Virus record (IMG/VR): IMGVR_UViG_3300020158_000335
Span: 11,155 to 75,154 of that record
Length of the DNA stretch: 64,000 nt
Strand: one strand, 5' to 3'
DNA from: a virus
Made by a program: the position numbers and the translations under genes. Below the pieces are notes generated by a model. That model did not search any database and was not told the DNA's origin. It saw only the letters and a list, made by a program, of their open reading frames with translations. Shown here in pieces: positions 1 through 17,321 of the stretch (position 1 is its first letter; every line of letters starts with the position of its first letter).

Positions 1-2972
1 TTATTAAATTCTTCTCTCGTCATGTCCCACGGCTGCTTATCTGCCACAGATGGTGCGCTTGTACCAGAGGCGTCCGGGGCTTGATCGTTGTTGGCCATTT
101 TATTGAATTCAGGATAGTCTTCCAAAACATGTTTTGCTACTGGAAGCCCTTTTGATATTGCGTCAAGAACTGCGTAGTAGTGTTGCGTATGTTCTGTCAT
201 GGGTGATTCTTTTACGATCATGCCATTATGCCCAGCATCTTCAAAAAAACGGAACATGTCCTCAGAAACAACATCGGGATCGCCACATCTATCAGTAAAC
301 GTTTTCCACTGTTTTGTTGTGACAAGACCTTCTCGGTATTTCTTCTCTGTATTTTGGGAGAGTAACCGCTTTAGTGCCGCCCATTGTTTTTCGCGTAAAG
401 TGTTTTTTGCGGTACGTTTTCGGGATATTGAGATATAGGTATCCCTGCTCATCTGCCACGGCTGCTTATTGGCCACGGATGGAGCCGATTCCATAACCAG
501 ATCATCGTCGTCATCCTCATCGTATTCACCTTCATCACCATCTTCAAAAATCCCTTTCTGCTTGTTCGCCGGATCAAGTTCAGCCGCCCGAGCAATAGCG
601 CCCTTTATGACTTCCGAAGCGGTCGGTGCTGGTTCTTTTCCAAACAGCCCGACTTGATTCTGATACTGCAGAAAGGTTAAAATGCGTTCGCCCGCCAGCT
701 TGAAAACCGTTCCAAGATGTTTTGACCGTCTGATGTTATCGTTTAAAATCCGGGTGATGTCCTTTGTTTCTTCTGGTATCTGTGAGAACAGCCCCATTTG
801 TGAAAGAATCATTTCAATTCCGTCCCCATCGTCTCGGGCCTGAACCATAAGGCGTGTGGCTTCAATGATATTGTCCACAAGATTGATACCGCCCATATCC
901 GGATAGCTGGCCCTGATTTTGGCGAACACGGGAGCTGCTGCGGTTAATGCAGTCAGGATGTTCTTGACGGCTGGATGCGTCTCTTCCGCCATCAAAGTTA
1001 AAAGCCTGTCATCAGCATAAGCTTTGCTGAAAATGGCGCACTGAATTCGATCTACAAGCGCTTTTGTTGGACGGCTGTCCGCCGTAAGCAGCCCAGCCGC
1101 CTCAGCTTTGCCCACTTTTTCAATAAACTTGGCGATAAATCCCGCATTACTGGCAGCCGCGATGTCCCCGTCTTTGGATGGTGTAAATCTTTCCATATCC
1201 GCAGCGGTTAGCCTGCTGTCATCAACCTTGGCCTGTTCCATCGGACTCATGGAGGCGATATCCGCCTCGTTTGCCCGCTCTGTAATTGATCTGCGATCTC
1301 CACCGGAAAGACGGATCCGGACAAGCACCGGCTGCTGGATTTCCGCCAGTTTTTCCGGATTAAACCCAAACTTACCGGCATTCTGAATAATCCATGCTTT
1401 GTATTCGGTCGCGCCGTCTTTGTTGTACCGTTGCCTGATAGCCATTGTCCGGCCGTTCCCGGATTCAACGGCTAAATCCCTGCCAACGATAGGCGATCCG
1501 ACAGATGCGTAAAGAGAATCGCCCAGGCGGTCTGGATTGAGAGTGTTTGAAATTGTTGGAATCTGCCCCTTCATGGTATCCCGTGTCCGGTCCCGTGGTT
1601 GAAGCTCGGCAGGGAATTCCGGGTTCGGCGTAAAATCAGCGTTATGGGAAGCGACAAGGTTTTTTGCTTCGACTACTGCATATTGCAGTACCAGCATATC
1701 ATTATCACTCAGGTAAGCGCGATCACGCTTGCCTGTGATTACTTTAGCGTTGACTTTTCCGCCGTTTCTGGTAATATTTTCAACATCAAAAGGAGGATTA
1801 CTTATGCTATCTCGTAATTTTGAATTTATGGAAAATGAGTTTGTTCCGTATGCCATCGAACGATCAGGCGGTAGGGTGTTCCGCATGTGTGGAAGGTCAA
1901 TGGCAAAATGGAAAGAGATTGAGGATTCCGACAAGGCTTTCAGGATTACCTCAAATGCCTTCTCTGTCTCAGAGTCATCTGCTATAGCACTGGCTGATGA
2001 GTTTGAAGAAGACATCCGTGAAGCCGCCGCCCGATAAACCTTGGTGCTGACCTTGTTTAGGCGAGAGATAAACCCGTCCGCCAGGATAGATACTTCTCCT
2101 AATTCTTCTTGGCTCGCAATCGGTTTTAATTGCCTGATTACGTTGTAAATTTCATGCCCAAGCCCGTTCTCTTTTGCATCAATAATTGGGGCGGTGTTCA
2201 TCTGCAATTCGCAGATGTGCCCGCCGATCATGACTTTCATTATGATACCGGGATAGCCTTCTTTAGTCGGATTTTCGAACCCATTCTTAATCCAGAATAC
2301 AGCAGGGTCTTTTGATATTAAACTGGAAGCCATAGCAACTTGCGATGTGGTGTCGAATACCAATGTCGCAGCTACGACGTCCAAAAGCTTTGACTCGTCT
2401 CCCTCGTAATCATTCTCGATTTTTTCAGCCGCACGTTCTTTCCCTTTTAACCCAGGTCGCAATATCACTTTGGCGCCTGTTTTCGCTCCGAAAGCCTCTA
2501 CCCATTCCTTAAATGCAGGAAGCGCAATCTCAGCCGCAGCGTACACGTCTTCAATGGTCTTAACGCCTTGCTGTTTCAGAGATTTTTTGATTTCAACCAC
2601 CACATCAGTTTCACCTAAATCCTTGAGCGCCTGAAGTGTGGTGTTCCCATCCAGCACCTTAAACTTCCCGTTGCCCATATCAATCACCCGAATAGGCGCA
2701 CGTTTCTCACCTGTTCCGGACTTGGCCGCCGCCATAGACTCATGAGCGCGTTTCACCCGTTCCGGGTCCGCCGCTTCACTGGGAACCAGTTGATCAATGG
2801 AAATGGTTACGCTGTTGAACGTGTCTTTGAAAAACGGAGAGTTACTCGGAGGCATCGTTTCAGAGAAAACATGACGAAAGACGTTTGAAATATCGTCAAT
2901 GTCCTGTGCGGCGGCAAGCTCAGCTCGCCAGTCGGGATTACCTGGAAGGGATTCAAAAAATGCTGATAGCAT
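1..2972 (-). CDS. Large DdrB-like polyvalent protein (partial, >990 aa): ParB-like domain, RelA/SpoT-like nucleotidyltransferase domain, DdrB-ParB domain
   Basis: ATG at 2972; frame stays open off the left edge, so it is absent from the ORF track. Manual translation gives APIRVIDMGNGKFKVLDGN, LKGKERAAEKIENDY..LLDVV..GY..CELQMNT..HEIYN and LQPRDRTR..GSPIVGRDLAVESGNGR. Confidence 0.85.
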   Translation of the reverse strand, partial: MLSAFFESLPGNPDWRAELAAAQDIDDISNVFRHVFSETMPPSNSPFFKDTFNSVTISIDQLVPSEAADPERVKRAHESMAAAKSGTGEKRAPIRVIDMGNGKFKVLDGNTTLQALKDLGETDVVVEIKKSLKQQGVKTIEDVYAAAEIALPAFKEWVEAFGAKTGAKVILRPGLKGKERAAEKIENDYEGDESKLLDVVAATLVFDTTSQVAMASSLISKDPAVFWIKNGFENPTKEGYPGIIMKVMIGGHICELQMNTAPIIDAKENGLGHEIYNVIRQLKPIASQEELGEVSILADGFISRLNKVSTKVYRAAASRMSSSNSSASAIADDSETEKAFEVILKALSESSISFHFAIDLPHMRNTLPPDRSMAYGTNSFSINSKLRDSISNPPFDVENITRNGGKVNAKVITGKRDRAYLSDNDMLVLQYAVVEAKNLVASHNADFTPNPEFPAELQPRDRTRDTMKGQIPTISNTLNPDRLGDSLYASVGSPIVGRDLAVESGNGRTMAIRQRYNKDGATEYKAWIIQNAGKFGFNPEKLAEIQQPVLVRIRLSGGDRRSITERANEADIASMSPMEQAKVDDSRLTAADMERFTPSKDGDIAAASNAGFIAKFIEKVGKAEAAGLLTADSRPTKALVDRIQCAIFSKAYADDRLLTLMAEETHPAVKNILTALTAAAPVFAKIRASYPDMGGINLVDNIIEATRLMVQARDDGDGIEMILSQMGLFSQIPEETKDITRILNDNIRRSKHLGTVFKLAGERILTFLQYQNQVGLFGKEPAPTASEVIKGAIARAAELDPANKQKGIFEDGDEGEYDEDDDDDLVMESAPSVANKQPWQMSRDTYISISRKRTAKNTLREKQWAALKRLLSQNTEKKYREGLVTTKQWKTFTDRCGDPDVVSEDMFRFFEDAGHNGMIVKESPMTEHTQHYYAVLDAISKGLPVAKHVLEDYPEFNKMANNDQAPDASGTSAPSVADKQPWDMTREEFN
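1750..1777 (+). promoter_or_regulatory. Antisense sigma70-type promoter nested in a coding linker
   Basis: TTGACT (1750-1755), 16 bp, TAATAT (1772-1777) with extended-10 TG; AGGAGG at 1791-1796. Confidence 0.7.
1804..2037 (+). CDS. Nested antisense 77-aa protein, candidate antitoxin of the RelA/SpoT-like domain
   Basis: Promoter, AAAGGAGG RBS 7 nt before ATG 1804; the overlapping sense frame is a Ser-rich unstructured-looking linker. Confidence 0.65.
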   Translation: MLSRNFEFMENEFVPYAIERSGGRVFRMCGRSMAKWKEIEDSDKAFRITSNAFSVSESSAIALADEFEEDIREAAAR

Positions 2973-5891: not shown

Positions 5892-8800
5892 TTATGCCGC
5901 CTTTATGTCTGGAAGCCCGTCTGTGACCCAAGACGGGACGTTGGCTATAGCAGCAGGGATACTGTCTTTGTTAATGACGTTGAATTGGCCCCAATCTTTG
6001 AAATCTCTGGTTGCGCCATCCCCCAGTGTTGACTGCTCTAATGCCAGATACAGATATGCAATTTGTAGAACGATCTGCTTCGATTTAGCAGAAAATTGGA
6101 AGAGGTAATGTCCGTATGAATCCCATTCTTTTGAAATAATATAGTAACCATCGGAGTTACTTGTTTTCTTATGTCCGCTCACAGATTGAAAAGTAGCAAA
6201 CGGTTCATAAAAAAGAGGGTTCTTCTTGATCTTCTTATCGAGCATTTTATAAAATGCGTCAATAGGCTTTGAAGCATCGGTAATTGCTTTGGCCAGTTCC
6301 AAATCACCAATGAATTTTTCTTTTTCAGAACCAGACGGAGGGGTAGCCAGTATGCCCAAAATCATTTTAAACATTTCAGGGTCATTTACCACTAATTCGT
6401 GCATTAATTCAGGGGACGAAAACTGCTGGATGCCCATTGAAAAGACTTCTGTTGAGTTATCTGCCCCATAATACTTCCCGACATAAGCGTTGAACAGGTG
6501 GTCTGTGTATGCCACTTCATCATCTTTGTAGTTTTCATTCCCGGTCAGAACAGATAATTTTATCAACCCCTTTGTTTTATCAACTCTACCGTCGAGAAAC
6601 GTATTGGAAACTGATACATACTTTGCGTCATCTTCAACTAAATGCCCCATTTCATGCCATAACGTACTCTTGGTAAACTCAGCCCCGACATGGATAATCT
6701 TTCGACCGACTTCAGCGCAAGCTCTTGGTTGGCCTTTAAACCTTTCCTGGATGTGACATTTACCGAACCGCCCCCCGCTTAACCGGTATAATTCCGCCAT
6801 GTCTTTTCTGATATTGGCCTCGCCATACCCGGCTTTTGTTGTTGTTCCCGATTTGCCTGTTACCGATATTTCAACTGCCAAGTAGTTTATCGCGGATTTG
6901 TCTATCACCTGGTCGCTGACCCATTGGTTGGCCTGCTTTTCGGTAATGGGTGATGATTCAAGCATTTTTTGAATCAATGGGTTATAAGTTTTGGCGAGTG
7001 CATCTGATAGTTCTGTGTTTAGCTGCTGCTTCTTATCGGAAAAAGACTTTTCTTTTGTTTTGTACTCAGATTTAAGATTTTGATATTCATCAGAAGCGAG
7101 AAATTCATCCAGAGCTTCTTGAATAATTTTTAGGTTTTTAGCGTATCTCTCTTGTGTTTCAGCAGCCATTAGAGAGTATGCTTCATGCAGTTTGATCCAT
7201 TCGTCAGTTTTTGCCCGTGTGCCTGATATCCTATTTGCGATGGCGTCCAAATAAGAACCCGCAACTGCCGTCTCTCTTTCTACATCCCCCAGCTTTTTGG
7301 TATATCCTAATCGGTCTTCAAGTGTTGATTTATCTGCTCTATATTTAAGCTCTGCCGCAGACCGTTCTTGTTCAAGGGATAAAAGGTCATTTCGTGCAGC
7401 AGAAACCTTCAGCGCAACCGGTCTAAAGCCAGGGGCCGTTGACCATGCATCTACAATCTCTTCCCCTTTGGCTTTTGCAGCATCAAAGATTTCCTTCCCG
7501 GCTTCCTTCGATAGTTCTGACATCGGCTTAACGTTTTCATATCCTGACACCATCCGAGCCAATGTGCCAGGGGCGATTGTGATGAGCCTGTCTTCTGACA
7601 TCGACTTACGCATTAATTCTGAGATTTCATATCTTTGGATAGCGGTTACTGCCACGTTGTAATCAGAGACCAATAATTCAAGTCGATCTATATGGTCGAA
7701 CACGGTTATAGCGTCTTGTGGCTTGTTTGGCATATCTTCTGACATAATTCCTGACGCCTTGAACGCAAGATAAATATCATCAAATGTGGTTGCAGCCCGG
7801 AGCATATCTTTCCAGTCGCCGCCATCTTCAAGGATTGCGGTCTCCATAACCGGATCATCATCCAGCATATCCTTTGCCATTGCAGGAGCAGGCGCAGCGC
7901 TTTCCAAAATACCGCCCCAGTCCTCCCGCCATGCCGCCAGGTACCAAGTCTTCCTGTCCGGGTCCCATGACACCGTTGCAATCTCACCCTGCCACGATAA
8001 ATCGACTTTCGGTCTGCTGGATGGCCCGTATTTTCGCTTGATATGTCCACGGGTCAACATATCCACAAGCCTCATGCAGAGTTCACGGCCTGACTGTTCG
8101 CTGGGCAGGTTTTTTTTTTCAAAATCCTGCTTGGCGATGATTCGGGCAATGCCGTCACCATCAGCAAAAAGCGGGGCAGTCCCAGTATTCCCCCAAAGGA
8201 GGGCAATCCAGCCGATATCCGGACGGCTGGCACCCTGTATGGTGTTCTTTTGGGTATCCAGCGTGTTTTTCATGGCCCGCTTGGATTGATCCTGGGCGAT
8301 GGTGGGCTTTTGGTTCGGCTGGACGGTGGATTCAAGAATCATGGCTTTGCCTATTGTTATTTCCTGCAAGCCGAGTGTAAAAGTCGCCTTGATTTTTTTG
8401 GGGTACACTGCTGCCATGCCCAGAACAAGTTTCTCGTTGACATCAAGTTCTGCATAAATTCCATATTTAGGCCCAATCATACTTCTGAGTGAAGGTGCGC
8501 CTTTGCCTTCTATTGATAGAGTATATACTCCAGGGGGTAACTTCAGGATTGCTGCTTCAAGTAAAGCCCGTCTGCCATCACCGTACACTGAAAGGTAAAG
8601 TTTGTTTTTCGTATTTAAAATGCTACTCCTGGCAATACGAGACAGAAGTTTACGTACGGTTGTTTCTCCTTCATCTGTCTCGATCTTTTGATCCAGATGG
8701 GCGGAGGATTCAAGAATTGATCCGATTGAAGGATCGAATGTGCCCTGATTCTCTACCGCTTTGATTTGGTTCGGATTAAAAGCTATCCAGACAAGGTGTT

Positions 8801-10268
8801 CTTTACCACCGCCCATTATATTGCCGCCGATGTGAGTAATGCCGTCATAACCAACATTTTGCAATACCTGATTTGCGACGGCCTTGCTATCTGCTTGTTG
8901 TTCAAGCAATGAGTAATTATAACCTCCTGGCGTGGTACGTTTTATTTCTTTTGATATAAAATCATCAATTTCTGTATCTGAAAATTTTACAAGAGCAGGA
9001 AACAACAGCATCCATTCGTTACGGGACAACAACTGCATATCAAGAGTATCTTTGTCCGCGTCAAACGGGTTCCGAATGTTCAGGAAGCATGAATAAACGG
9101 CGCGGTTGGCTTCTGTTTTTCCTGCCACTAACGGCATTGCGATTTTTATTCTTTCGCTGTTAAGGAAACCCCTGGCATCCCGTACCAGATGTTCTACAGC
9201 ACCGTCAGATAAAAATAATTGTTGGTTATCATCTGACGATAATGCACCAGCCCCAATGTCCATTACATCCATGTTAAATACCTTCAAAAAGGTATCACGG
9301 AACTCTTCCTTGATCGTTGCCCATTCCACGACTTCCTTACCCATATATTCCCGAGCCACATCTTTGTTTTCAGTAAAATAAAACCCTGGCCCATATAACG
9401 CTGTTTTATCCTGCTTTGAAATGTCGAATTCCTTAAACCCGGCTTTGGCTGTGCCGTGATATACCGGAACTGGAGTTTGAATTTTGTGGGTTTCCTGGGG
9501 AGAGCCGTCTGGGTTTACGACTTTGGATGTTATTTTTCCATTGACAATATCAATAAGATGTGCGATCTTCTCCCCATAGCCTGCGGGCGGTGCTGCTACT
9601 GGCGAGGACATTTCTTGTGTCGAGGTCAGCCCTTCACCACATGACGCAGGCTTTCCTATTTCTACCGCTTGCACAAGATACAGACGAGTTCCACGTTCCT
9701 TCCTGGTATATTCCTTTGCCATGATTTTTACACACAAGACTTCACCGTCGAATTTCATCGGGACATCAAAATGGTGTATTTCTTTGATGTTTTCGTTTCC
9801 CTTGCGGTCATCACGAGACATCCTAAAAGCTGAAGCCTGAAACAGCCTGTCAAGATTTGCAATAGCCTGCATGTGGGCTTGAACTGAGACTGATCGTTCA
9901 TACGCACTTTTGCTCAACATCTTCAGCAGCGATTCACCTGAAACGGTTGCTGTGAATCCGGTGTCGATATTAACCAGGGGCACCCCGATAAACTCTTTCG
10001 CTGCTGCCTTTGCCTGGTCTGATCCCCGCGCATATCGCATATTCCCCAGAAGCGCAGCCTTTTCCCAATCCCCAAACCATTCCTTAAACTTCTTGGCCTT
10101 CACGCCGTTTTCTGAGTAATCATACTTGGCATAATCAGCCGGGAATTCCGCTTCAAACACCGCCGCAATATCCCCGAATGTTTGAGCATTCCGGATTGCA
10201 TCACGCCAGTCCTTCGCTGCGGGTTCGGGGGTGCCGCCATCCGCTGGGGTTCCGGATTCAAGAATCAT
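5892..10268 (-). CDS. Large polyvalent protein: LPD3-like domain inserted in an ART-PolyVal-like ADP-ribosyltransferase, degenerate PBECR-like domain, coiled coil, zincin metallopeptidase
   Basis: FKEWFGDW..SKVVNPDG..VYHGT..GFYFT..GYDGI..AFNPNQIK; LVNIDTG..HMQAIANLDRLF..VKIMAKE; LWHEMGH..TEVFSMG. Confidence 0.8.
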   Translation of the reverse strand: MILESGTPADGGTPEPAAKDWRDAIRNAQTFGDIAAVFEAEFPADYAKYDYSENGVKAKKFKEWFGDWEKAALLGNMRYARGSDQAKAAAKEFIGVPLVNIDTGFTATVSGESLLKMLSKSAYERSVSVQAHMQAIANLDRLFQASAFRMSRDDRKGNENIKEIHHFDVPMKFDGEVLCVKIMAKEYTRKERGTRLYLVQAVEIGKPASCGEGLTSTQEMSSPVAAPPAGYGEKIAHLIDIVNGKITSKVVNPDGSPQETHKIQTPVPVYHGTAKAGFKEFDISKQDKTALYGPGFYFTENKDVAREYMGKEVVEWATIKEEFRDTFLKVFNMDVMDIGAGALSSDDNQQLFLSDGAVEHLVRDARGFLNSERIKIAMPLVAGKTEANRAVYSCFLNIRNPFDADKDTLDMQLLSRNEWMLLFPALVKFSDTEIDDFISKEIKRTTPGGYNYSLLEQQADSKAVANQVLQNVGYDGITHIGGNIMGGGKEHLVWIAFNPNQIKAVENQGTFDPSIGSILESSAHLDQKIETDEGETTVRKLLSRIARSSILNTKNKLYLSVYGDGRRALLEAAILKLPPGVYTLSIEGKGAPSLRSMIGPKYGIYAELDVNEKLVLGMAAVYPKKIKATFTLGLQEITIGKAMILESTVQPNQKPTIAQDQSKRAMKNTLDTQKNTIQGASRPDIGWIALLWGNTGTAPLFADGDGIARIIAKQDFEKKNLPSEQSGRELCMRLVDMLTRGHIKRKYGPSSRPKVDLSWQGEIATVSWDPDRKTWYLAAWREDWGGILESAAPAPAMAKDMLDDDPVMETAILEDGGDWKDMLRAATTFDDIYLAFKASGIMSEDMPNKPQDAITVFDHIDRLELLVSDYNVAVTAIQRYEISELMRKSMSEDRLITIAPGTLARMVSGYENVKPMSELSKEAGKEIFDAAKAKGEEIVDAWSTAPGFRPVALKVSAARNDLLSLEQERSAAELKYRADKSTLEDRLGYTKKLGDVERETAVAGSYLDAIANRISGTRAKTDEWIKLHEAYSLMAAETQERYAKNLKIIQEALDEFLASDEYQNLKSEYKTKEKSFSDKKQQLNTELSDALAKTYNPLIQKMLESSPITEKQANQWVSDQVIDKSAINYLAVEISVTGKSGTTTKAGYGEANIRKDMAELYRLSGGRFGKCHIQERFKGQPRACAEVGRKIIHVGAEFTKSTLWHEMGHLVEDDAKYVSVSNTFLDGRVDKTKGLIKLSVLTGNENYKDDEVAYTDHLFNAYVGKYYGADNSTEVFSMGIQQFSSPELMHELVVNDPEMFKMILGILATPPSGSEKEKFIGDLELAKAITDASKPIDAFYKMLDKKIKKNPLFYEPFATFQSVSGHKKTSNSDGYYIISKEWDSYGHYLFQFSAKSKQIVLQIAYLYLALEQSTLGDGATRDFKDWGQFNVINKDSIPAAIANVPSWVTDGLPDIKAA
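9541..9569 (+). promoter_or_regulatory. Antisense promoter nested after the LPD3-like domain
   Basis: TTGACA (9541-9546), 17 bp, GATCTT with extended-10 TG; the -10 is weak. Confidence 0.55.
9576..9660 (+). ncRNA. Candidate structured antisense sRNA (~80 nt)
   Basis: Terminal stem agcctgcg (9578-9585)/cgcaggct (9645-9652) at the predicted +1; nested helices ggtg/cacc, ctggc/gtcag, gaca/tgtc; pyrimidine tail. Confidence 0.5.
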
Positions 10269-10606
10269 GGCTGTACCGTTTTCTTGATTTCAATATATTT
10301 TTCAGTCGGTTGAATCACCGGTGAAACAGCCTGAATTTCATCCGTGATTGCCTTTATGATTTTGATAAACCGCTCCGGCTCTTCACCGTTGAATTTTCCG
10401 GCGATAAGGTCAGCAAGCTTCTGGTTCTGCTGAGCGGCTTCTGGTTGAAGGTCAATTTGTTCGTTCAGTTTGGCGAGGGCCGACTTAAACTCCTTTTGAG
10501 CTTCACGCTTTGCTGAAAAACTAAGCCCGCTGGATGCAAGCTCAGTTCGTTTTTGCGCCACTATCGCCTGCAATGTCCGTTTTTCTTTAAATCCAAGTGC
10601 CATCAC
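10265..10606 (-). CDS. DdrA-like small protein
   Basis: Position directly after darA as in P1; duplicated LxFxxKR motif. Confidence 0.5.
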   Translation of the reverse strand: MMALGFKEKRTLQAIVAQKRTELASSGLSFSAKREAQKEFKSALAKLNEQIDLQPEAAQQNQKLADLIAGKFNGEEPERFIKIIKAITDEIQAVSPVIQPTEKYIEIKKTVQP

Positions 10607-13092
10607 ATCACCTTTTTAGCTTCCTCGTTTAACAAACCGGTTAAATAATCAGCGACGGTATTCAGAAGCCCATCGTATTTCTCCATCAAGCCTGCGGTTT
10701 CCAGTGTTGCGGCTGCCTCATCCAGTATCCTGCCATATCCATCAGTATCCGAATCGTGAGCGCCGGACATCAGGTCATTCAGGGTGGCGATTGCGCTCTT
10801 GACATCCGCATCTTCTGGGGGTATATTATCCCCAAGGTTGCTCTCATTCGAGCGTCTGCTGTCTTCGGGCTGGCCGGGTTCTTCCACGGGGGCAGGAAAC
10901 GAAGGTGATTGGTCAGGATCATCAGCGTGCGCGACACGCAGGAGCAACTTTCTTCCACCTCTCTGCTCATAAGGTGTTTTGCTTTTTGGTTTGGCATCTT
11001 CAAGAAACCATGTTGTAACGCCGTAATATCCTCCGTTATTTTGCAACTCAACTGCTGCGAATTTACCACGTCCATTTCGTTTTACAAGCAACAGCCTCCC
11101 GTTAGGTTGTTCGTAAATTTCAGTGTAATGGCGGGTGATGTCCGAAAGTGCATCTATTTCGTCATTATATCCGTATGCCTTGAATTCCTTGATTCTGTCT
11201 TCTGCAATATGTGACTTACCATAAGCGCCGCCTTCCTCAAGTCGGATAGGTGCGGATGGGAATCTTCCCTCGCTGGCCGTTTCTATATCGGGGCCGATAC
11301 TCCCAAAATCAGAAGTTCCATCAGGCGCGGGAATGAATAGACTTCCAGGGGTTTCGACTTTATCCACTTCCGGCGCAATCTGTTCCGGAGATAAAGATGA
11401 TTGAGCGAGTTCGGGATATTCTGCGATAACCATTGTATCTACAGGTTCCCCTGCGGTTACGGCCCGTTTGACACTCCTGGCATGATTTCCTTCACTGATT
11501 GATATTATTTGAGTCCTGGCCTCAAGTTCCTTCGCTATTGCTTGTGGTATAGCTGCATCGGCGCGAAGCCCCGCGAGTGATTCGCCAGCACGAAGCCCTG
11601 TAATCGCTTGGTTAATAAGGTCGAGCGCTCTTTCCGCTGCTCCGTCTTCTTTCAGCCTGCGTTTGGGGCTTGTCCATAAGCCATAATTAGAAGGTCGGTT
11701 CCTATATTTTCCGTCAGGATATTCGGCTATTATACTCTTTGCGCTTTTAGCTTCCTGTTCAAGCATATAAATCAGATAATATTTTTTCGTCATTTCCCAG
11801 GGTTCCGGTACGTCCGGTTCCGGCATCACAAATTCCGGGACAACCGGCGTGACTTCCGGCGTGACGACTTCCGGGGCAACAGGCGTGACTTCCGGCCTTG
11901 GCGCTTTCCCACTGGTGTACAAATCTTCAACGTATTTATCCCATTGCGCCTGCGTGGCTTCACCTTTTTGAAGTAATTCCCACATTTGACCAGTCCACTC
12001 CTGATCTTGAGACCGAACCCCTGGCACCGCCATTTCCCCTACTTCTCTCAATCTGACAAACTCAAGTCGCTTGACTTCCCTCTCATTGGGGATTTTATCT
12101 TCCTTGATTTTAGCCATTATCCCCTTCAAGTCGTTTATAAACCCGTCCTGTTTCATCATGTCAAATGCTTGCTTATCTATCCCCAGGGAAAGAGCTTCAT
12201 CTTTAAGCGCCTCAAATTCCGAATCCATCGCCGCCTGCTTCGCCGCCGTTTCCGCCGCCATCGCCCGCGCCGCTTCATCCGCCTTGGCCTTCACCTGCAA
12301 TGCCGCAAGCTGGTTTTCCAAATCAGCATTTATACCCTGCTGTTTTTCAATCAAGCCTTGCGTCATGGTAATCTTTGTTTGGGTGATTTCCGCAGCAGAC
12401 TGTTGATCCCTAAGCCCGTTCATCAGAGCGACATTTTCAGTGGACAATTTATCAGCATCCGACTTCAAGGTCACAAGCTGTTCATTTTGAGCCTTCACGT
12501 CTTTTTGTGTCGTCTGAAACCTTGCAGAGTTCTTCACCACAAGCTGAGCTATACGTTTGCCCACCTCTTCCAGCGAAATCTCACCCTCGCCCTCTGGTGA
12601 CACCACAAGCGTAATATCCCGTTTATTCAGCAGCCAGCGGTAAGCAATAATCTCATCATCAGGGCCGATCTTCTTGGCGTCCCCGCTCGGGGAATGAAAC
12701 ACAATCGTAATGGCCTGCCCATCGGAAAACGGAATCTGAGCGGTAACATTTGCAAACAATCCGGTTTTCCGTGGTTTTCCGATAATTGCCTCAGCCGGTG
12801 CGATCCCTTCAGGCAGATGTTTTGCAAACACCCGGGCAAGCGCTCTCATCCTGCTGTCTGTCTGTGAGAATCTCTTGACTGTAACCGCCTCGTAAATCCC
12901 TTCTTCCAGAAACTCGCCGTCATTGTACTCATCGTCCATTTCTGCAAGAGTCGCACATTCCAGAATCAGCCTGTCTGTCTCATGGGTATTGGTCAACGCC
13001 ATATAAGCTCGAACCAACCTGTCGGGACCGAACCCTTTAACGAACAAATCAAGCCCGATTTTGTGCAATTTGCCTTCTGAGTATGGGTTCAT
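10603..13092 (-). CDS. darA: DarA-like virion antirestriction protein with an added C-terminal PBECR-like RNase domain
   Basis: FSDGQAITIVFHSP..RWLLNKRDIT..VVKNSARF N-domain and coiled coil; PIRLEEGGAYGKSHI..YYGVTTWF domain. Confidence 0.8.
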   Translation of the reverse strand: MNPYSEGKLHKIGLDLFVKGFGPDRLVRAYMALTNTHETDRLILECATLAEMDDEYNDGEFLEEGIYEAVTVKRFSQTDSRMRALARVFAKHLPEGIAPAEAIIGKPRKTGLFANVTAQIPFSDGQAITIVFHSPSGDAKKIGPDDEIIAYRWLLNKRDITLVVSPEGEGEISLEEVGKRIAQLVVKNSARFQTTQKDVKAQNEQLVTLKSDADKLSTENVALMNGLRDQQSAAEITQTKITMTQGLIEKQQGINADLENQLAALQVKAKADEAARAMAAETAAKQAAMDSEFEALKDEALSLGIDKQAFDMMKQDGFINDLKGIMAKIKEDKIPNEREVKRLEFVRLREVGEMAVPGVRSQDQEWTGQMWELLQKGEATQAQWDKYVEDLYTSGKAPRPEVTPVAPEVVTPEVTPVVPEFVMPEPDVPEPWEMTKKYYLIYMLEQEAKSAKSIIAEYPDGKYRNRPSNYGLWTSPKRRLKEDGAAERALDLINQAITGLRAGESLAGLRADAAIPQAIAKELEARTQIISISEGNHARSVKRAVTAGEPVDTMVIAEYPELAQSSLSPEQIAPEVDKVETPGSLFIPAPDGTSDFGSIGPDIETASEGRFPSAPIRLEEGGAYGKSHIAEDRIKEFKAYGYNDEIDALSDITRHYTEIYEQPNGRLLLVKRNGRGKFAAVELQNNGGYYGVTTWFLEDAKPKSKTPYEQRGGRKLLLRVAHADDPDQSPSFPAPVEEPGQPEDSRRSNESNLGDNIPPEDADVKSAIATLNDLMSGAHDSDTDGYGRILDEAAATLETAGLMEKYDGLLNTVADYLTGLLNEEAKKVM
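10799..10827 (+). promoter_or_regulatory. Antisense promoter nested after the PBECR-like domain
   Basis: TTGACA (10799-10804), 17 bp, TATATT (10822-10827). Confidence 0.75.
10834..10956 (+). ncRNA. Candidate structured antisense sRNA (~120 nt)
   Basis: Terminal stem aggttgctc (10835-10843)/gagcaactt (10942-10950) at the predicted +1; cUUCGg loop 10863-10868; ctggcc/ggtcag; gcgtg-cgcga-cacgc hairpin; U-rich tail. Confidence 0.55.
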
Positions 13093-13688
13093 TATGCGCC
13101 CTCCTGAGCGTTCTGAATCATGTCAATATCAAGATTCAGCTTAACGGTTTTGGCCTGCTCGTTTTTAAGCTGTGTTTCAAGCCCTGCAAGTTGATATTGA
13201 AGAGTTGTAACCTGGCCAGCCTGGGCGGTGGTCTCCGCCATGATGTTTTCGTTCGTGCCTTTAAGCTGTGCGACGGTTGCCGTAACTGTGTCAACCTGCG
13301 CTGATATGCTGGTATTGACCGCCTTTATCTTTGGGATTTTAACAATCCCGGCGTTTTTCTCTTTGGCTTTTGTGAATGCCGGTTCATTTGCCTTGACGTA
13401 GGTTATCACCTCATCAACAGCCTTGGCGATATCATCAACAGACTTGATCGGAATGACCTTTGCGTTAAGTTTGACCTGAAAAACGCCGCCGCCAGCCTTG
13501 ATTTTTACAGTTATTTTCTGGCCGGACGCAAAAACCAACGTGGCGGTTTTCATCAAAAACCCGGATTCGCGTTTGGCCTTGTTCGTGGCTTCAACATCTT
13601 CTACCGGGATGCCTGCCGTTTCAAATTTTTTAAGCACCGGCTTTAACCCGGCCTTGTCGAATTTCTCAAAATCTATGGTTAAAGCCAT
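13092..13688 (-). CDS. hdf: Hdf-like protein (DarA N-domain homologue)
   Basis: KRESG..LVFASGQKITVKIK..VFQVKLN plus coiled coil; directly upstream of darA. Confidence 0.75.
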   Translation of the reverse strand: MALTIDFEKFDKAGLKPVLKKFETAGIPVEDVEATNKAKRESGFLMKTATLVFASGQKITVKIKAGGGVFQVKLNAKVIPIKSVDDIAKAVDEVITYVKANEPAFTKAKEKNAGIVKIPKIKAVNTSISAQVDTVTATVAQLKGTNENIMAETTAQAGQVTTLQYQLAGLETQLKNEQAKTVKLNLDIDMIQNAQEGA

Positions 13689-13776
13689 ACGATCTCCCCC
13701 TCTTATATGTTATTCATTGATAAACGGACTATCCTTAAATCACAAATGGCTTGCGTGTTTTTGAACTCTGCTTTTT

Positions 13777-14292
13777 TTACCATGATACAGCCATCACATC
13801 GTTGATGCTATGACAGGATTTAATGGCAGAGTATAATTGATTTTTCTTGTACAAAACTGCCTGGAAATGGGCTCCAACTTGCACCCCGACAGATATCATT
13901 TCCGCCAAAGATAAAACATGAGATTGGTTGTCATAATCAATAAATGCTATCTCGGGCACCTCGGCAAGCTGCATCATCGTCACAGCAGCGACCATATTTG
14001 CGCGGTCTTTGTCCTCGCAATCGTACCGAATACCAGATGGTTGCACTACACATCCCAGCGAAAGCTCTGATATTGAGCAGCCCTTGATAATCTCTTTCTG
14101 GATTCCCATAGCAAAATCAAGGTCGATAAGCTGCCCATCATCAGGGATGCGATTGACATCGTAGCTGTACCCTGCTTCTGTTTGATCTTCAGGCGACATC
14201 TGCGTAAGTTCTTCCAGCCTGATATTGTATGGATACAGGATCGAACTCTGCAACCGCTGGATAACAGGGATATTCTTCGCATATACTCTCAT
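13777..14292 (-). CDS. DUF4376-like tail fibre-associated protein
   Basis: YDCEDKDRANM..DYDNQSHVLSLAEM..VMAVSW pattern; position after the fibre genes. Confidence 0.65.
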   Translation of the reverse strand: MRVYAKNIPVIQRLQSSILYPYNIRLEELTQMSPEDQTEAGYSYDVNRIPDDGQLIDLDFAMGIQKEIIKGCSISELSLGCVVQPSGIRYDCEDKDRANMVAAVTMMQLAEVPEIAFIDYDNQSHVLSLAEMISVGVQVGAHFQAVLYKKNQLYSAIKSCHSINDVMAVSW

Positions 14293-14310
14293 GTATTTAC
14301 TCCTTCGTCT

Positions 14311-14634
14311 TCACGATAAAACATAATATCGGTAGTGTTTCTGTATTGTGGACAAAAACGGGATATGCTCTTTGTATTTCTCTATTTGCCGTATCAGCAC
14401 CTCGCTGCCAGTAAAAAATACATGAGTTTTTTTGCCCAGGTTAAATTGCACTGTTAAGCATTTGCCATGTTTTCTCTCTGTAAATTTGCTATCGGTTATC
14501 CTGTATCCAATTATTTCTATTTCACGGTTTACGATATCCGCTATCTTAAGTTTGTCGCCGTCAAGAATATGTTCATCTGCCGCAAAGTCAGAGAATTTTC
14601 GCACATTCGTCGGGTTTTCAGTAGCCTCCGGCAT
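14311..14634 (-). CDS. Small beta-rich protein downstream of the DGR RT, candidate non-Avd accessory factor
   Basis: RKFSDF..IADIVNREI..CLTVQF..FFTGSEVLI..IPF; overlaps the RT 3' end; start uncertain (14634 or up to 14706). Confidence 0.6.
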   Translation of the reverse strand: MPEATENPTNVRKFSDFAADEHILDGDKLKIADIVNREIEIIGYRITDSKFTERKHGKCLTVQFNLGKKTHVFFTGSEVLIRQIEKYKEHIPFLSTIQKHYRYYVLS

Positions 14635-15602
14635 TGTGATATCCATAAGTTGTATCCATTCCCGTGTATTAACCATCCGTAATAACTCATTACGGATTTT
14701 ACGCACGACCTAATATCTGTGGCATCATCCAAGAAGACACGAATTTTGCGTTTAAAGTTTTTTGAAATTGATTTGCGTATCAAGGTAAACTTTCCAAAAA
14801 AACGATAGCCTAAAAAATCAATGCCCCGTTCATCGGATGGGAATACCTGCCAGTTGCTTTTGATTTCAAGCTTCAACTCTGAACTCATATATTTCCTGAT
14901 ATCACTAAATAGACTGTGAAGAAAAGCCTTGTCATTATGCAATATGACAAGATCGTCGCAATATCTGGCGTAATATCTGATGTTCTTTTTCTCTTTCAGC
15001 CAATGGTCAAAAGGAGATAAATATATGTTAGCAAAGTACTGAGACAGGTAATTACCAATAGGTACGCCTTCTGCGCTATCAACAATTGTATCCAATAGCC
15101 ATAAAGTATCTGCACATTTTATCTTTTTTCTGATGATATTTTTCAAACAGTCATGATTGACGGAAGGATAAAACTTTTTAATATCAAGTTTTAAACAGTA
15201 TTTGGTTCCGTCATTGTCTTTTAGAAAATCTTTCATTCGGATCACGCCATCATGTATTCCACGGCCTGCCATTGATGCGTATGTGTCTCGTATAAATGTT
15301 TTCATCCATATCGGTTCAAGAACCTGCATGATACAGTGGTGGATGATACGATCAGGAAAATACGGGAGTTTAAAAATTTCCCTTTCTTTTCCTCTCTCAG
15401 TCCTTTTGAATACCTGATATTGTGCATTTTTGAACACTTTATTTTTTAAACTATTATGAATTTGCACAAAATATTTTTCTGGATCGCGATCAACCATTTT
15501 GACGTCTGAATAATTATTTTTCCCACGCCTTGCGTTCTTGTGCGCCAGCCGGATGTTATCCATGTCGTAAATTTTATGGTATAAATTACCAAAACGTTTC
15601 AT
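14541..15602 (-). CDS. DGR reverse transcriptase
   Basis: KLDIKKFYPS, GVPIGNYLSQYFAN, YARYCDD, GIDFLGY; adjacent TR/VR pair; ATG 15602 preferred over GTG 15623. Confidence 0.95.
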   Translation of the reverse strand: MKRFGNLYHKIYDMDNIRLAHKNARRGKNNYSDVKMVDRDPEKYFVQIHNSLKNKVFKNAQYQVFKRTERGKEREIFKLPYFPDRIIHHCIMQVLEPIWMKTFIRDTYASMAGRGIHDGVIRMKDFLKDNDGTKYCLKLDIKKFYPSVNHDCLKNIIRKKIKCADTLWLLDTIVDSAEGVPIGNYLSQYFANIYLSPFDHWLKEKKNIRYYARYCDDLVILHNDKAFLHSLFSDIRKYMSSELKLEIKSNWQVFPSDERGIDFLGYRFFGKFTLIRKSISKNFKRKIRVFLDDATDIRSCVKSVMSYYGWLIHGNGYNLWISQCRRLLKTRRMCENSLTLRQMNIFLTATNLR

Positions 15603-15727
15603 ATATCTTTTGCCTGATTCCACAAGAGAGTCTTCGCCGTTTGGCTACCAACACCCTTTATGTTTTCGTTTTGTGTTTTGCCAAGAGGCAAGGTTGAGCC
15701 AGCGCAGTAAAAAAAATAGAACCAGAT

Positions 15728-15856
15728 AGCTGACTGCCCCGCAATATTCGTATTGCAATTCGCCGCCGCATTATTCGCATTACGGTAAGTGACTCCCGCA
15801 TTAGCGCTATTATTCAGATTGCCCCCTGCATAAAGCGCCTGCCAACTCGCTGCCGA
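15728..15856 (-). repeat. DGR template repeat (TR)
   Basis: 129-nt ungapped match to 15891-16019; all 25 mismatches fall on TR adenines of the coding strand. Confidence 0.95.
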
Positions 15857-15884
15857 ATTGCCAACTCAACCCTAAATCAAAAAA

Positions 15885-17321
15885 TCAGGCAGCCGACCGC
15901 CCCGCAATACCCGCATCGCAACCCGCCGCCGCATTACCCGCATCACGGTAAGCGACCCCCGCACGAGCGCCATAAGTCAGAGCGCCCCCCGCAGAAAGCG
16001 CCCGCCAACCCGCCGCCGACGGTTGGTAGTAATAATCTGTAACGAATGTAGAGCTACTACCGTTTGCAACCGAAGATGGTAAAAATGTTCCGTCGAAAAG
16101 CGTCTGCTGATAGCCAGTTGTTCCAAGCGGGGTTATTCCAAGCGAAGAATAATTAGTCACACTTTCATCAGTGAACAAAGCAGGGTTATTACAAACATAT
16201 ACCCCGGACGGAAATAGAAAATCCACTCCATCCACCCATTTCCATAGATGCCCATAAAAATTTTCTATCCCATAAAAAGAATTAGCAACAACCATATCAG
16301 ATGCCTGAACGTATGCACACTTATTCGCGTTAGCGACCCCGTATTTGACTGATCCGCAATTGTTCCCCAGTACATTTGTGACACCAGTTTTACATATTTT
16401 CGTAATATCCCACGGTGCCCCCTCTGTATATCCTGGCAACATCAACTGTGAATTCCAGTTTTTGTATCTGGTTAGATATAAGAGAATAATCGCCTCACCC
16501 ATCCAGTAATCGTATTGGTAAAAAGCTCCGTCGGTTGCTTGACGTCGCATTGTCCGACTGAAAGTTGATAATGGCAAGTATCCAGATACAGACCGTATTT
16601 TATCTCCTGATAGATACGATTGTGTTGTAGTTCCGTGAATGTACGCACTACTGCGGTACAAAACGCCCTCATAAGCTGAGCAGTATTTGTAATCCACGGG
16701 TGTAGCCAACCCGCCTGAGAAAAATATTGGGTGAACAACCGCTGTAACTACTGATCCGTTTGATTTTGTATAGCTGAACGCACCATACGAGATCAAAGCA
16801 TACATAAAATTACCATCATTAAACAGCGCATAATAAAATTTAGGGATTTGCACCATGACGTTACCATCTGCACCTGTCAAAGTCGCAGCCGTCCCGTCCA
16901 GCTTCTTTGTTGAGTCATTTGGATGTAAATAGTAATTAAATGCGCCGGTGGTGTGCGCCAGCAGACAACGCTTCATCTGCTCTTGGATCGGAAAATTCTG
17001 ATAGTCGTATTCAAGCAGAGCTCCGTTAACCTGAATGACACCCCTCATTGTATCATTCACAAAATCCCACTTAACGCCATAAGCATAATTATTGCCAGCG
17101 TCAAAATTACCATTTAATTTTTGGATTGCTTGAAGAACTGTGTCTGAAGCAGCTACCGTTCCGGCTCCGGATGTGTAGCCGGTTAAGACGTTTGCAGCCT
17201 CCAGTGCAGCAAAGTTTTCGTCAATCTCGCCATAACGGTCATTCCACAACGCCGCGACCGCTGGCTGTCGTGGAGAACTCAAAATGGGCGTAATCATAGG
17301 ATGCGGTAATATGGACGGCAT
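15885..17321 (-). CDS. DGR target: tail fibre/receptor-binding protein with C-type-lectin-like C-terminus
   Basis: GIENFYGHLWKWVDG motif, C-terminal VR, N-terminal anchor LWNDRYGEIDENF. Confidence 0.9.
   Translation of the reverse strand: MPSILPHPMITPILSSPRQPAVAALWNDRYGEIDENFAALEAANVLTGYTSGAGTVAASDTVLQAIQKLNGNFDAGNNYAYGVKWDFVNDTMRGVIQVNGALLEYDYQNFPIQEQMKRCLLAHTTGAFNYYLHPNDSTKKLDGTAATLTGADGNVMVQIPKFYYALFNDGNFMYALISYGAFSYTKSNGSVVTAVVHPIFFSGGLATPVDYKYCSAYEGVLYRSSAYIHGTTTQSYLSGDKIRSVSGYLPLSTFSRTMRRQATDGAFYQYDYWMGEAIILLYLTRYKNWNSQLMLPGYTEGAPWDITKICKTGVTNVLGNNCGSVKYGVANANKCAYVQASDMVVANSFYGIENFYGHLWKWVDGVDFLFPSGVYVCNNPALFTDESVTNYSSLGITPLGTTGYQQTLFDGTFLPSSVANGSSSTFVTDYYYQPSAAGWRALSAGGALTYGARAGVAYRDAGNAAAGCDAGIAGRSAA
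15891..16019 (-). repeat. DGR variable repeat (VR) at the 3' end of the target gene
   Basis: Encodes the last ~43 aa of the 478-aa protein; adenine-specific differences from TR. Confidence 0.95.

Follow-up and report, generated by a model that had tools for sequence, protein, structure and literature searches.

A candidate antisense RNA gene overprinted on the linker behind the LPD3 domain of a phage polyvalent protein

Introduction

Why should the DNA that codes for a linker inside a giant phage protein also carry, on its other strand, what looks like a promoter followed by a hairpin? The question is raised by a locus in a stretch of viral DNA of 64,000 nucleotides (nt), positions 11,155 to 75,154 of the IMG/VR record IMGVR_UViG_3300020158_000335, which was analysed at its full length and is called the window here. 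The window is part of a 75-kb provirus record whose source is freshwater and lake metagenomes. The protein is a polyvalent protein of 1458 amino acids (aa), and the linker lies between its LPD3 and ART-PolyVal domains. The answer that we consider on balance probable is that a small antisense RNA gene is overprinted on the linker after LPD3, that it represents a conserved class, and that its RNA would silence the output of LPD3 via LPD3's own mRNA.

The argument relies on the following features, numbered by window position:

5892-10268, minus strand: gene of the multi-domain polyvalent protein, 1458 aa (open reading frame (ORF) with its translation, Pfam)
10062-10088, minus strand: leader motif FKEWFGDWE, aa 61-69, upstream half of the usual ART-PolyVal start (sequence, homologues)
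9528-10061, minus strand: LPD3 cassette, aa 70-247, consisting of LPD3, a disordered linker and a short helix (natural deletion variant)
9678-10019, minus strand: LPD3 domain PF18798, aa 84-197 (Pfam, 60.2 bits against a cut-off of 27)
9576-9667, plus strand: predicted antisense RNA of ~85-92 nt (RNAfold, covariance model)
9561-9569, plus strand: extended -10 element TG-c-GATCTT, with TG at 9561-62 and GATCTT at 9564-69 (sequence)
9541-9546, plus strand: -35 box TTGACA, the reverse complement of the I-V-N codons (sequence)
9504-9527, minus strand: SKVVNPDG, aa 248-255, downstream half of the ART-PolyVal leader (sequence, homologues)
9342-9476, minus strand: start of ART-PolyVal PF18760, best Pfam stretch aa 265-309 (58.3 bits against a cut-off of 31.2)

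The antisense unit in the window

The spacer between the -35 and -10 boxes is 17 nt long, and six bases separate GATCTT from the predicted start, A9576. The RNA would be closed by an 8-bp stem, AGCCUGCG/CGCAGGCU (9578-85/9645-52), within which RNAfold places nested helices; an extra pair, A9576-U9654, lies outside this stem, and the pyrimidine tail CUUUCCUAUUUCUAC follows it at 9653-9667. An earlier reading of the bare sequence (the original prediction) had described the -35 and -10 boxes, the 8-bp stem, the nested helices and the pyrimidine tail, and the sequence together with RNAfold bears out each of them in its place. The unit occupies aa 201-243 and the Pfam match to LPD3 ends at aa 197, thus the unit follows the LPD3 codons immediately on their 3' side and is read from the other strand. 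The stretch 9541-9660 codes for aa 204-243, the linker between LPD3 and ART. In the AlphaFold model of aa 56-247 (pLDDT 84.9), a helical part and a four-stranded sheet are accompanied by a disordered segment, aa 207-225 (pLDDT <50), which matches the position of the RNA loop, and by a short helix, which overlies the antisense promoter.

The genes of the window mostly carry Shine-Dalgarno sites, so a sigma-70-type promoter is the relevant kind. A Bacteroides-type promoter was ruled out for this unit by the same Shine-Dalgarno sites and by the lack of a TAnnTTTG in register. The -35 hexamer matches the consensus at 6 of 6 positions and the -10 at 3 of 6, to which the TG is added, and these boxes are equal to or better than those of the relatives described below. 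An intrinsic terminator, that is, a compact GC-rich hairpin with at least 5 U in 8 nt, was considered for 9645-9667 and rejected: the closing stem encloses 59 nt and the terminator scan lists none there.

The next polyvalent gene contains a second candidate antisense promoter, TTGACA-17-TATATT (11/12), at 10799-10956 (plus strand). Behind it comes a stem-closed fold with an 11-bp outer stem and the tail UCUUCC, a design like that of the unit at 9541, with a z of only -0.5.

Closer relatives share the unit in one register

A profile search yielded 14 loci whose LPD3 is 40-56% identical to that of the window at the amino acid level; they come from Burkholderiales, Gammaproteobacteria, Desulfovibrionaceae, Nitrosomonadaceae and others, and four are viral contigs. 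The antisense unit stands behind LPD3 in 13 of the 14, the remaining locus (L136) breaking off after LPD3. On the antisense strand, these 13 loci and the window share a single register: TTGAC(a), 16-17 nt that include TG, a hexamer xAxxxT, about 7 nt, the stem and the tail. The stem of the relatives reads GAAGCCNGCG ... CGCN'GGCUUC and their tail CUUYUCUAUUUCCAC. The pair N/N' (45-111 of the alignment) occurs as U/A, C/G, G/C or A/U, i.e. as all four Watson-Crick pairs. Since N and N' are the third positions of a Pro CCN and an Ala GCN' codon, the protein gives no reason for them to match.

RNAalifold on 11 sequences predicts a closing stem of 10 bp. Its cells are paired in 99.1% of the cases in these sequences, and this share falls to 29-46% when the partner is slid by 1-3 columns. 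Twelve cells are changed on both sides of the stem compared to 2.9+-1.9 in shuffles, a value that none of the 500 shuffles reaches. The compensatory base changes that the original prediction had named as its check are therefore present in the closing stem. Additionally, three loci with another linker type (ENAGVVGQDP...QPPPDV) have a stem of their own at the same place.

The promoter bases leave their trace in the codons of the opposite strand. TTGAC is invariant in all 14 loci, A at -11 is invariant as well, and T at -7 and the TG are kept in the relatives. All 14 loci use GTC for the Val under the -35 box, a codon with a share of 15-45% among their Val codons (frequency product 7e-8). The Arg codon under the -10 box is AGA in seven of eight loci, where AGA accounts for 1-13% of the Arg codons; in the relatives the bases of the TG and the -10 are held by rare AGA and GCA codons. 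When ten relatives, without the window, were used to build a covariance model, the 64-kb window gave a single match, at 9572-9667 on the plus strand (58.2 bits, E 6e-15).

In several loci and proteins the unit follows LPD3 with no ART domain next to it, thus it belongs to LPD3 and not to ART. One locus, from a Nevskia metagenome-assembled genome (L134), has a tandem second copy of promoter, hairpin and tail behind a single LPD3:

1874-1966, minus strand of the locus: first unit, 82.9 bits
2060-2152, minus strand of the locus: second unit, 68.1 bits

The finished plasmids of Moraxella bovis and M. lincolnii have TTGTAT-17-TATAAT, 7 nt, an 11-bp stem AAAGCCCCAUU/AAUGGGGCUUU and U6 at the same place.

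A different arrangement is seen on plasmid pOT1-1 of Haematobacter massiliensis (L143), where a stand-alone LPD3-like ORF of 214 aa (385-1274) has no linker and no obvious antisense unit. The next ORF on the same strand codes for 65 aa and is possibly a protein partner in place of the RNA.

Distant relatives, mostly Bacteroidales

Further away, 20 representatives that are pairwise less than 70% identical were compared, Bacteroidales-type and others, and all 20 have an antisense unit after LPD3. Their LPD3-to-ART linker DNA has a mean folding z of -3.03 on the antisense strand and -2.09 on the sense strand relative to shuffles. Each of these linkers forms a long imperfect hairpin, whose antisense 3' arm comes from the conserved codons of the LPD3 end (EIEKGKLL) and whose 5' arm comes from variable linker codons. 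A MAFFT alignment of the Bacteroidales linkers gave no RNAalifold consensus because the registers of the hairpins differ, and a swap test was used instead. Of 21 loci, the window included, 14 have a 3' arm for which their own linker is the best pairing partner, and the mean duplex energy is -26.9 kcal/mol with the own linker against -18.9 kcal/mol with a foreign one. The antisense duplex is more stable than the sense one in 20 of the 21, with 3-7 G-U pairs each. An alignment of nine proteins was too divergent to find loci.

In the Bacteroidales loci, the antisense strand has TTTG-N20-TAnnTTTG upstream of the hairpin, which is the Bacteroides promoter consensus, and a U-run after the hairpin. 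The G of the TTTG is the complement of a third codon position; all 25 aligned sequences have C there, in codons for seven different amino acids. Two representatives outside the Bacteroidales (L048, L108) have TTGACA-17-TAATCT and TTGACA-17-TAATTT, respectively. The predicted promoter type matches the host in each group. Taken together, the loci point to a conserved, so far undescribed class of RNA units that would accompany LPD3 across several phyla, in phages as well as in plasmids and integrated elements.

The LPD3 cassette and the split ART leader

Among 66 homologues, the usual ART-PolyVal start reads FKxWFGDWE-xDPxNA-SKVVDxxGEP...YHGT, and a minority continue from WFGDWE into LPD3 and reach SKVV...YHGT about 200 aa later. 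The WFGDWE-LPD3-SKVV layout is common to about 68 distant loci, mostly Bacteroidales. When contigs of lake metagenomes were placed on 9000-10300 of the window, a joint from 9527 to 10062 was found in two runs from two studies (X11 and X13): 534 nt are skipped and 27 other letters stand between. Read on the coding strand, this otherwise near-identical form gives FKEWFGDWE-ESNKQDKAC-SKVVNPDG, the canonical leader with both LPD3 and the linker missing. The form with LPD3 is present in the same runs at similar depth.

LPD3 and its linker thus split the leader between FKEWFGDW (aa 61-68) and SKVVNPDG, as had been proposed from the sequence, and most ART-PolyVal genes without the insert read straight through as WFGDWExDPxNASKVV. 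The accompanying statement that the insertion lies in the ART domain is right as far as the N-terminal leader is concerned and does not apply to the catalytic domain, which Pfam recognises from aa 265. The edge of the cassette on the ART side, 9528, lies 13 nt past the -35 box, just beyond it as expected, therefore the whole antisense unit is inside the cassette. The notion that domain and RNA move together agrees with the lake deletion variant and with their joint occurrence in 13 of 14 closer loci, those lacking a following ART among them, and in 20 of 20 distant ones. It is therefore supported that LPD3 and the antisense unit constitute a single cassette, gained or lost as a whole. In the diverged lake populations, the only variant within 9528-9660 is 9614 C>T, in the apical loop of the predicted RNA, which changes E219 to K.

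In the same two runs, a short contig matches only the 77-nt hairpin piece 9578-9654 and differs in both flanks; on the coding strand it gives ...PLFK-[linker]-FK, a stop and an ATGA start/stop overlap. In this habitat, the RNA body is thus not confined to one gene context. In another lake contig the 5' arm of the hairpin has diverged.

Proposed mechanism

A promoter matched to the host, a hairpin beginning at the predicted start, covariation at synonymous sites and the asymmetry between strands argue for selection on a transcribed antisense RNA and not on the protein or a DNA hairpin. From the observed anatomy, conservation, covariation, codon constraint and cassette polymorphism we infer transcription, RNA ends and an effect on the target as follows. 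The sigma-70-type promoter (TTGACA, 17 nt, TGcGATCTT) would start a plus-strand RNA at about 9576. This RNA would be rod-like, closed by a stem of 8-10 bp, and its pyrimidine-rich end would lie at about 9660-9667. Its whole length would be complementary to a stretch of the polyvalent mRNA right after the codons of LPD3, and the two would pair, probably via loop-loop contacts, followed by cleavage of the duplex. As a result, less of the possibly RNase-toxin-like LPD3 would be made as long as transcription of the gene is no more than leaky.

Weighing the alternatives

Several observations weigh against silencing by a conserved antisense RNA. By itself, the unit in the window is no better than chance, and it is the comparison with the relatives that lifts it far above. 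The 120-nt stretch folds with a z of -0.67; a hand-picked 85 nt reaches -2.27, the 12th rank among 358 plus-strand segments of the gene, whose z values look random (mean -0.11, standard deviation 1.06). Perfect 8-bp inverted repeats with a loop of at most 100 nt occur 10 times in the gene against 5.4+-2.3 in shuffles. A scan of the window for consensus promoters and terminators lists neither at the unit, and the tail CUUUCCUAUUUCU has no clean U-tract, where relatives have U5-U6. Also in the relatives the sliding-window z of the unit is not uniformly extreme, being 0.13 in a GC-rich locus (L128). Covariation could be tested for the outer stem only, as the inner helices did not align, and the score of the covariance model is inflated by the shared coding sequence (KPAS/PPAGF motifs). 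The only contig from an RNA library (run X19) is unstranded and covers 9695-10000; 9576-9667 has no cover, which proves nothing.

The toxin-like character of LPD3 counts in favour of silencing, and its weakness against it. VIA-align ranks RNase toxins first against the LPD3 model (BrnT, two CdiA-CT, colicin D, MqsR and RelE) with Z of 4.2-5.7, all below 6 and graded weak by VIA-align itself: 5.7 for BrnT, 5.4-5.7 for CdiA-CT, 4.5 for colicin D and 4.2 for RelE. Foldseek with the LPD3 model gave no match below E 0.001, and a sequence profile search of the PDB with LPD3 gave none. The fold of LPD3 thus weakly resembles the RelE/BrnT/CdiA-CT/colicin D RNases. A bolder picture, which we hold with considerable doubt, would make LPD3 a RelE/BECR-like RNase toxin and the linker RNA its dedicated antidote, the two forming a portable cassette that spread across phyla, sits here in the ART leader, and had its promoter rewritten for each host while the frame was kept open.

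The main rival, unlikely in our estimate, is that the RNA acts on the LPD3 protein, as a bound partner, an inhibitor, a decoy substrate, an antidote or a cofactor packaged or made alongside. The strict linkage of the unit to LPD3, whatever domain comes next, would fit this, and so would the weak RNase likeness of the fold; the tandem unit of the Nevskia locus, which is not matched by a second LPD3, suggests that RNA dosage matters. However, the RNA sequence is wholly different between clades while LPD3 is conserved, which complementarity of the RNA to its own mRNA explains more easily, and the tandem-repeat or same-strand layout of type III systems is missing.

The sense strand of the distant linkers also beats shuffles (z -2.1), the cassette is polymorphic in lakes, and the 77-nt piece 9578-9654 recurs there in other contexts. 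One could therefore argue that the hairpin acts as DNA or as sense mRNA, be it a recombination or cruciform site of the cassette, a single-stranded DNA structure in transfer or an mRNA pause between domains, and that the promoter-like boxes are silent. We regard this as quite unlikely: in 20 of 21 cases stability is higher on the antisense strand, atypical codons preserve the promoter bases, the promoter consensus changes from one host phylum to another, which a DNA or mRNA hairpin would not need, and the cassette edges, 9528 and 10061, are not at the hairpin.

It is less probable again that the promoter is real and its role is antisense transcription itself, by collision and interference or by a longer read-through over LPD3, with the hairpin as just a leaky terminator. 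Such a role would suit the poor U-tract of the window tail and the RNA-library contig just beyond the unit, at 9695-10000, though this contig is unstranded; however, many relatives end in a clean hairpin and U-run, and the covarying stem points to a defined RNA body.

The least probable case, a decayed or chance look-alike that is inactive in the window, would agree with the unremarkable single-sequence statistics and with a stem of 8 bp against 10-13 bp in relatives, with one U-U mismatch, but is opposed by the perfect -35 box, the kept TG, A at -11 and T at -7, the 58 bits of the covariance model and lake variants that differ at only one position (9614, apical loop) within 9528-9660.

Comparison with known systems

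If silencing by an antisense RNA is assumed, the closest known case is the OOP RNA of phage lambda, which shares a 52-nt overlap with cII, terminates at the tO hairpin and directs the cII mRNA to cleavage that depends on RNase III (PMC5869508). The LPD3 unit would likewise yield a short countertranscript from a phage gene consisting of little beyond a promoter and a terminal hairpin. As with OOP, its complement would be the 3' portion of a coding sequence, and the encoded protein is toxic in excess, the latter being putative for LPD3. In contrast to OOP, the predicted LPD3 unit lies with its promoter wholly inside one ORF, in an inter-domain linker, and would be inherited with a protein domain across phyla, its promoter type re-tooled for each host.

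In type I toxin-antitoxin systems such as txpA/RatA and bsrG/SR4 of Bacillus subtilis, a convergent antisense RNA overlaps the 3' end of the toxin coding sequence and is the proposed trigger of mRNA decay. The LPD3 unit would also be a convergent antisense RNA with proposed mRNA decay; however, the putative toxin here is a RelE-like domain of about 130 aa in a 1458-aa effector and not a small membrane peptide. In type III systems of the ToxIN type, the toxin processes ToxI, an array of tandem repeats that precedes it on the same strand. The shared idea is that an RNA might neutralise an endoribonuclease-like protein, whereas the LPD3 unit is a single antisense hairpin downstream, and a search of the 75-kb phage record against itself gave neither a second copy of it nor a trans target longer than 13 nt. 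The type III-like design, one of the options in the original prediction, was therefore rejected: there is one antisense copy downstream of the domain and no same-strand tandem repeats in the phage.

Novelty and significance

A full-text literature search found no description of an LPD3-linked antisense RNA. Rfam 15 has no relevant match at or near the gathering score in the window or in 19 related loci, megablast and tblastn against a phage collection gave no match, and when viral contigs were scanned for exact words, neither the hairpin arm nor the 27-nt connector had a match. New in our analysis are the natural presence/absence polymorphism of the LPD3 cassette, the precise site of its insertion in the ART leader, the evidence for an antisense promoter at the codon level, and the parallel sigma-70-type and Bacteroides-type versions of the unit. 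If transcribed, these units would constitute a widespread family of small RNA genes that is invisible to annotation, each member wholly inside a coding frame, and the linker motifs KPAS...PPAGF...RFAxxVxAVK would be imprints of the RNA stem and promoter and not protein features. A protein domain and a regulatory RNA would then be inherited and shuffled as one module, which could explain how phages and plasmids safely carry toxin-like effector domains. The unit would also offer a first clue to the function of LPD3, an uncharacterised domain, and the lake population in which the cassette is both present and absent offers a natural experiment.

The host gene and its neighbourhood

Further along the 1458-aa protein than ART-PolyVal there is a weak Pfam match to PBECR1, and the PHROGs matches of the protein are to families of unknown function only. 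Its gene neighbours include a Hdf-like antirestriction protein, a member of the family 'released from the phage upon host infection' and more giant ORFs. The domains and the neighbouring genes together indicate that polyvalent virion effectors, as described by Iyer et al., 2017 (PMC5512222), form a P1-Dar-like block here. The gene is typical of their polyvalent type, with LPD3, ART, PBECR-like and zincin-like parts; LPD3 is assigned no function in that study, and antisense RNAs and linkers are not mentioned in it. The protein is probably packaged in the virion and injected into the host.

A motif (I/M)LES occurs five times in this protein (aa 2, 518, 644, 787 and 1102), every time at a domain border, compared to about 0.1 occurrences by chance in a rough estimate:

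10254-10265, minus strand: (I/M)LES site
8706-8717, minus strand: (I/M)LES site
8328-8339, minus strand: (I/M)LES site
7899-7910, minus strand: (I/M)LES site
6954-6965, minus strand: (I/M)LES site

Prohead proteases of the T4 type follow a (L/I)-x-E cleavage rule, which (I/M)LES fits, and the protein may be cut into single domains inside the capsid.

The strongest local fold on the plus strand of the gene is found at 8064-8172 (z -3.7). A terminator-like hairpin at 8094-8108, followed by nine T, lies within it antisense to the coding strand, and the stretch may be another embedded unit.

The Hdf-like antirestriction gene lies within 13092-17321, where a reverse transcriptase of 360 aa adjoins tail and tail-fibre genes. 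Its position beside the fibre genes suggests a diversity-generating retroelement acting on the fibre.

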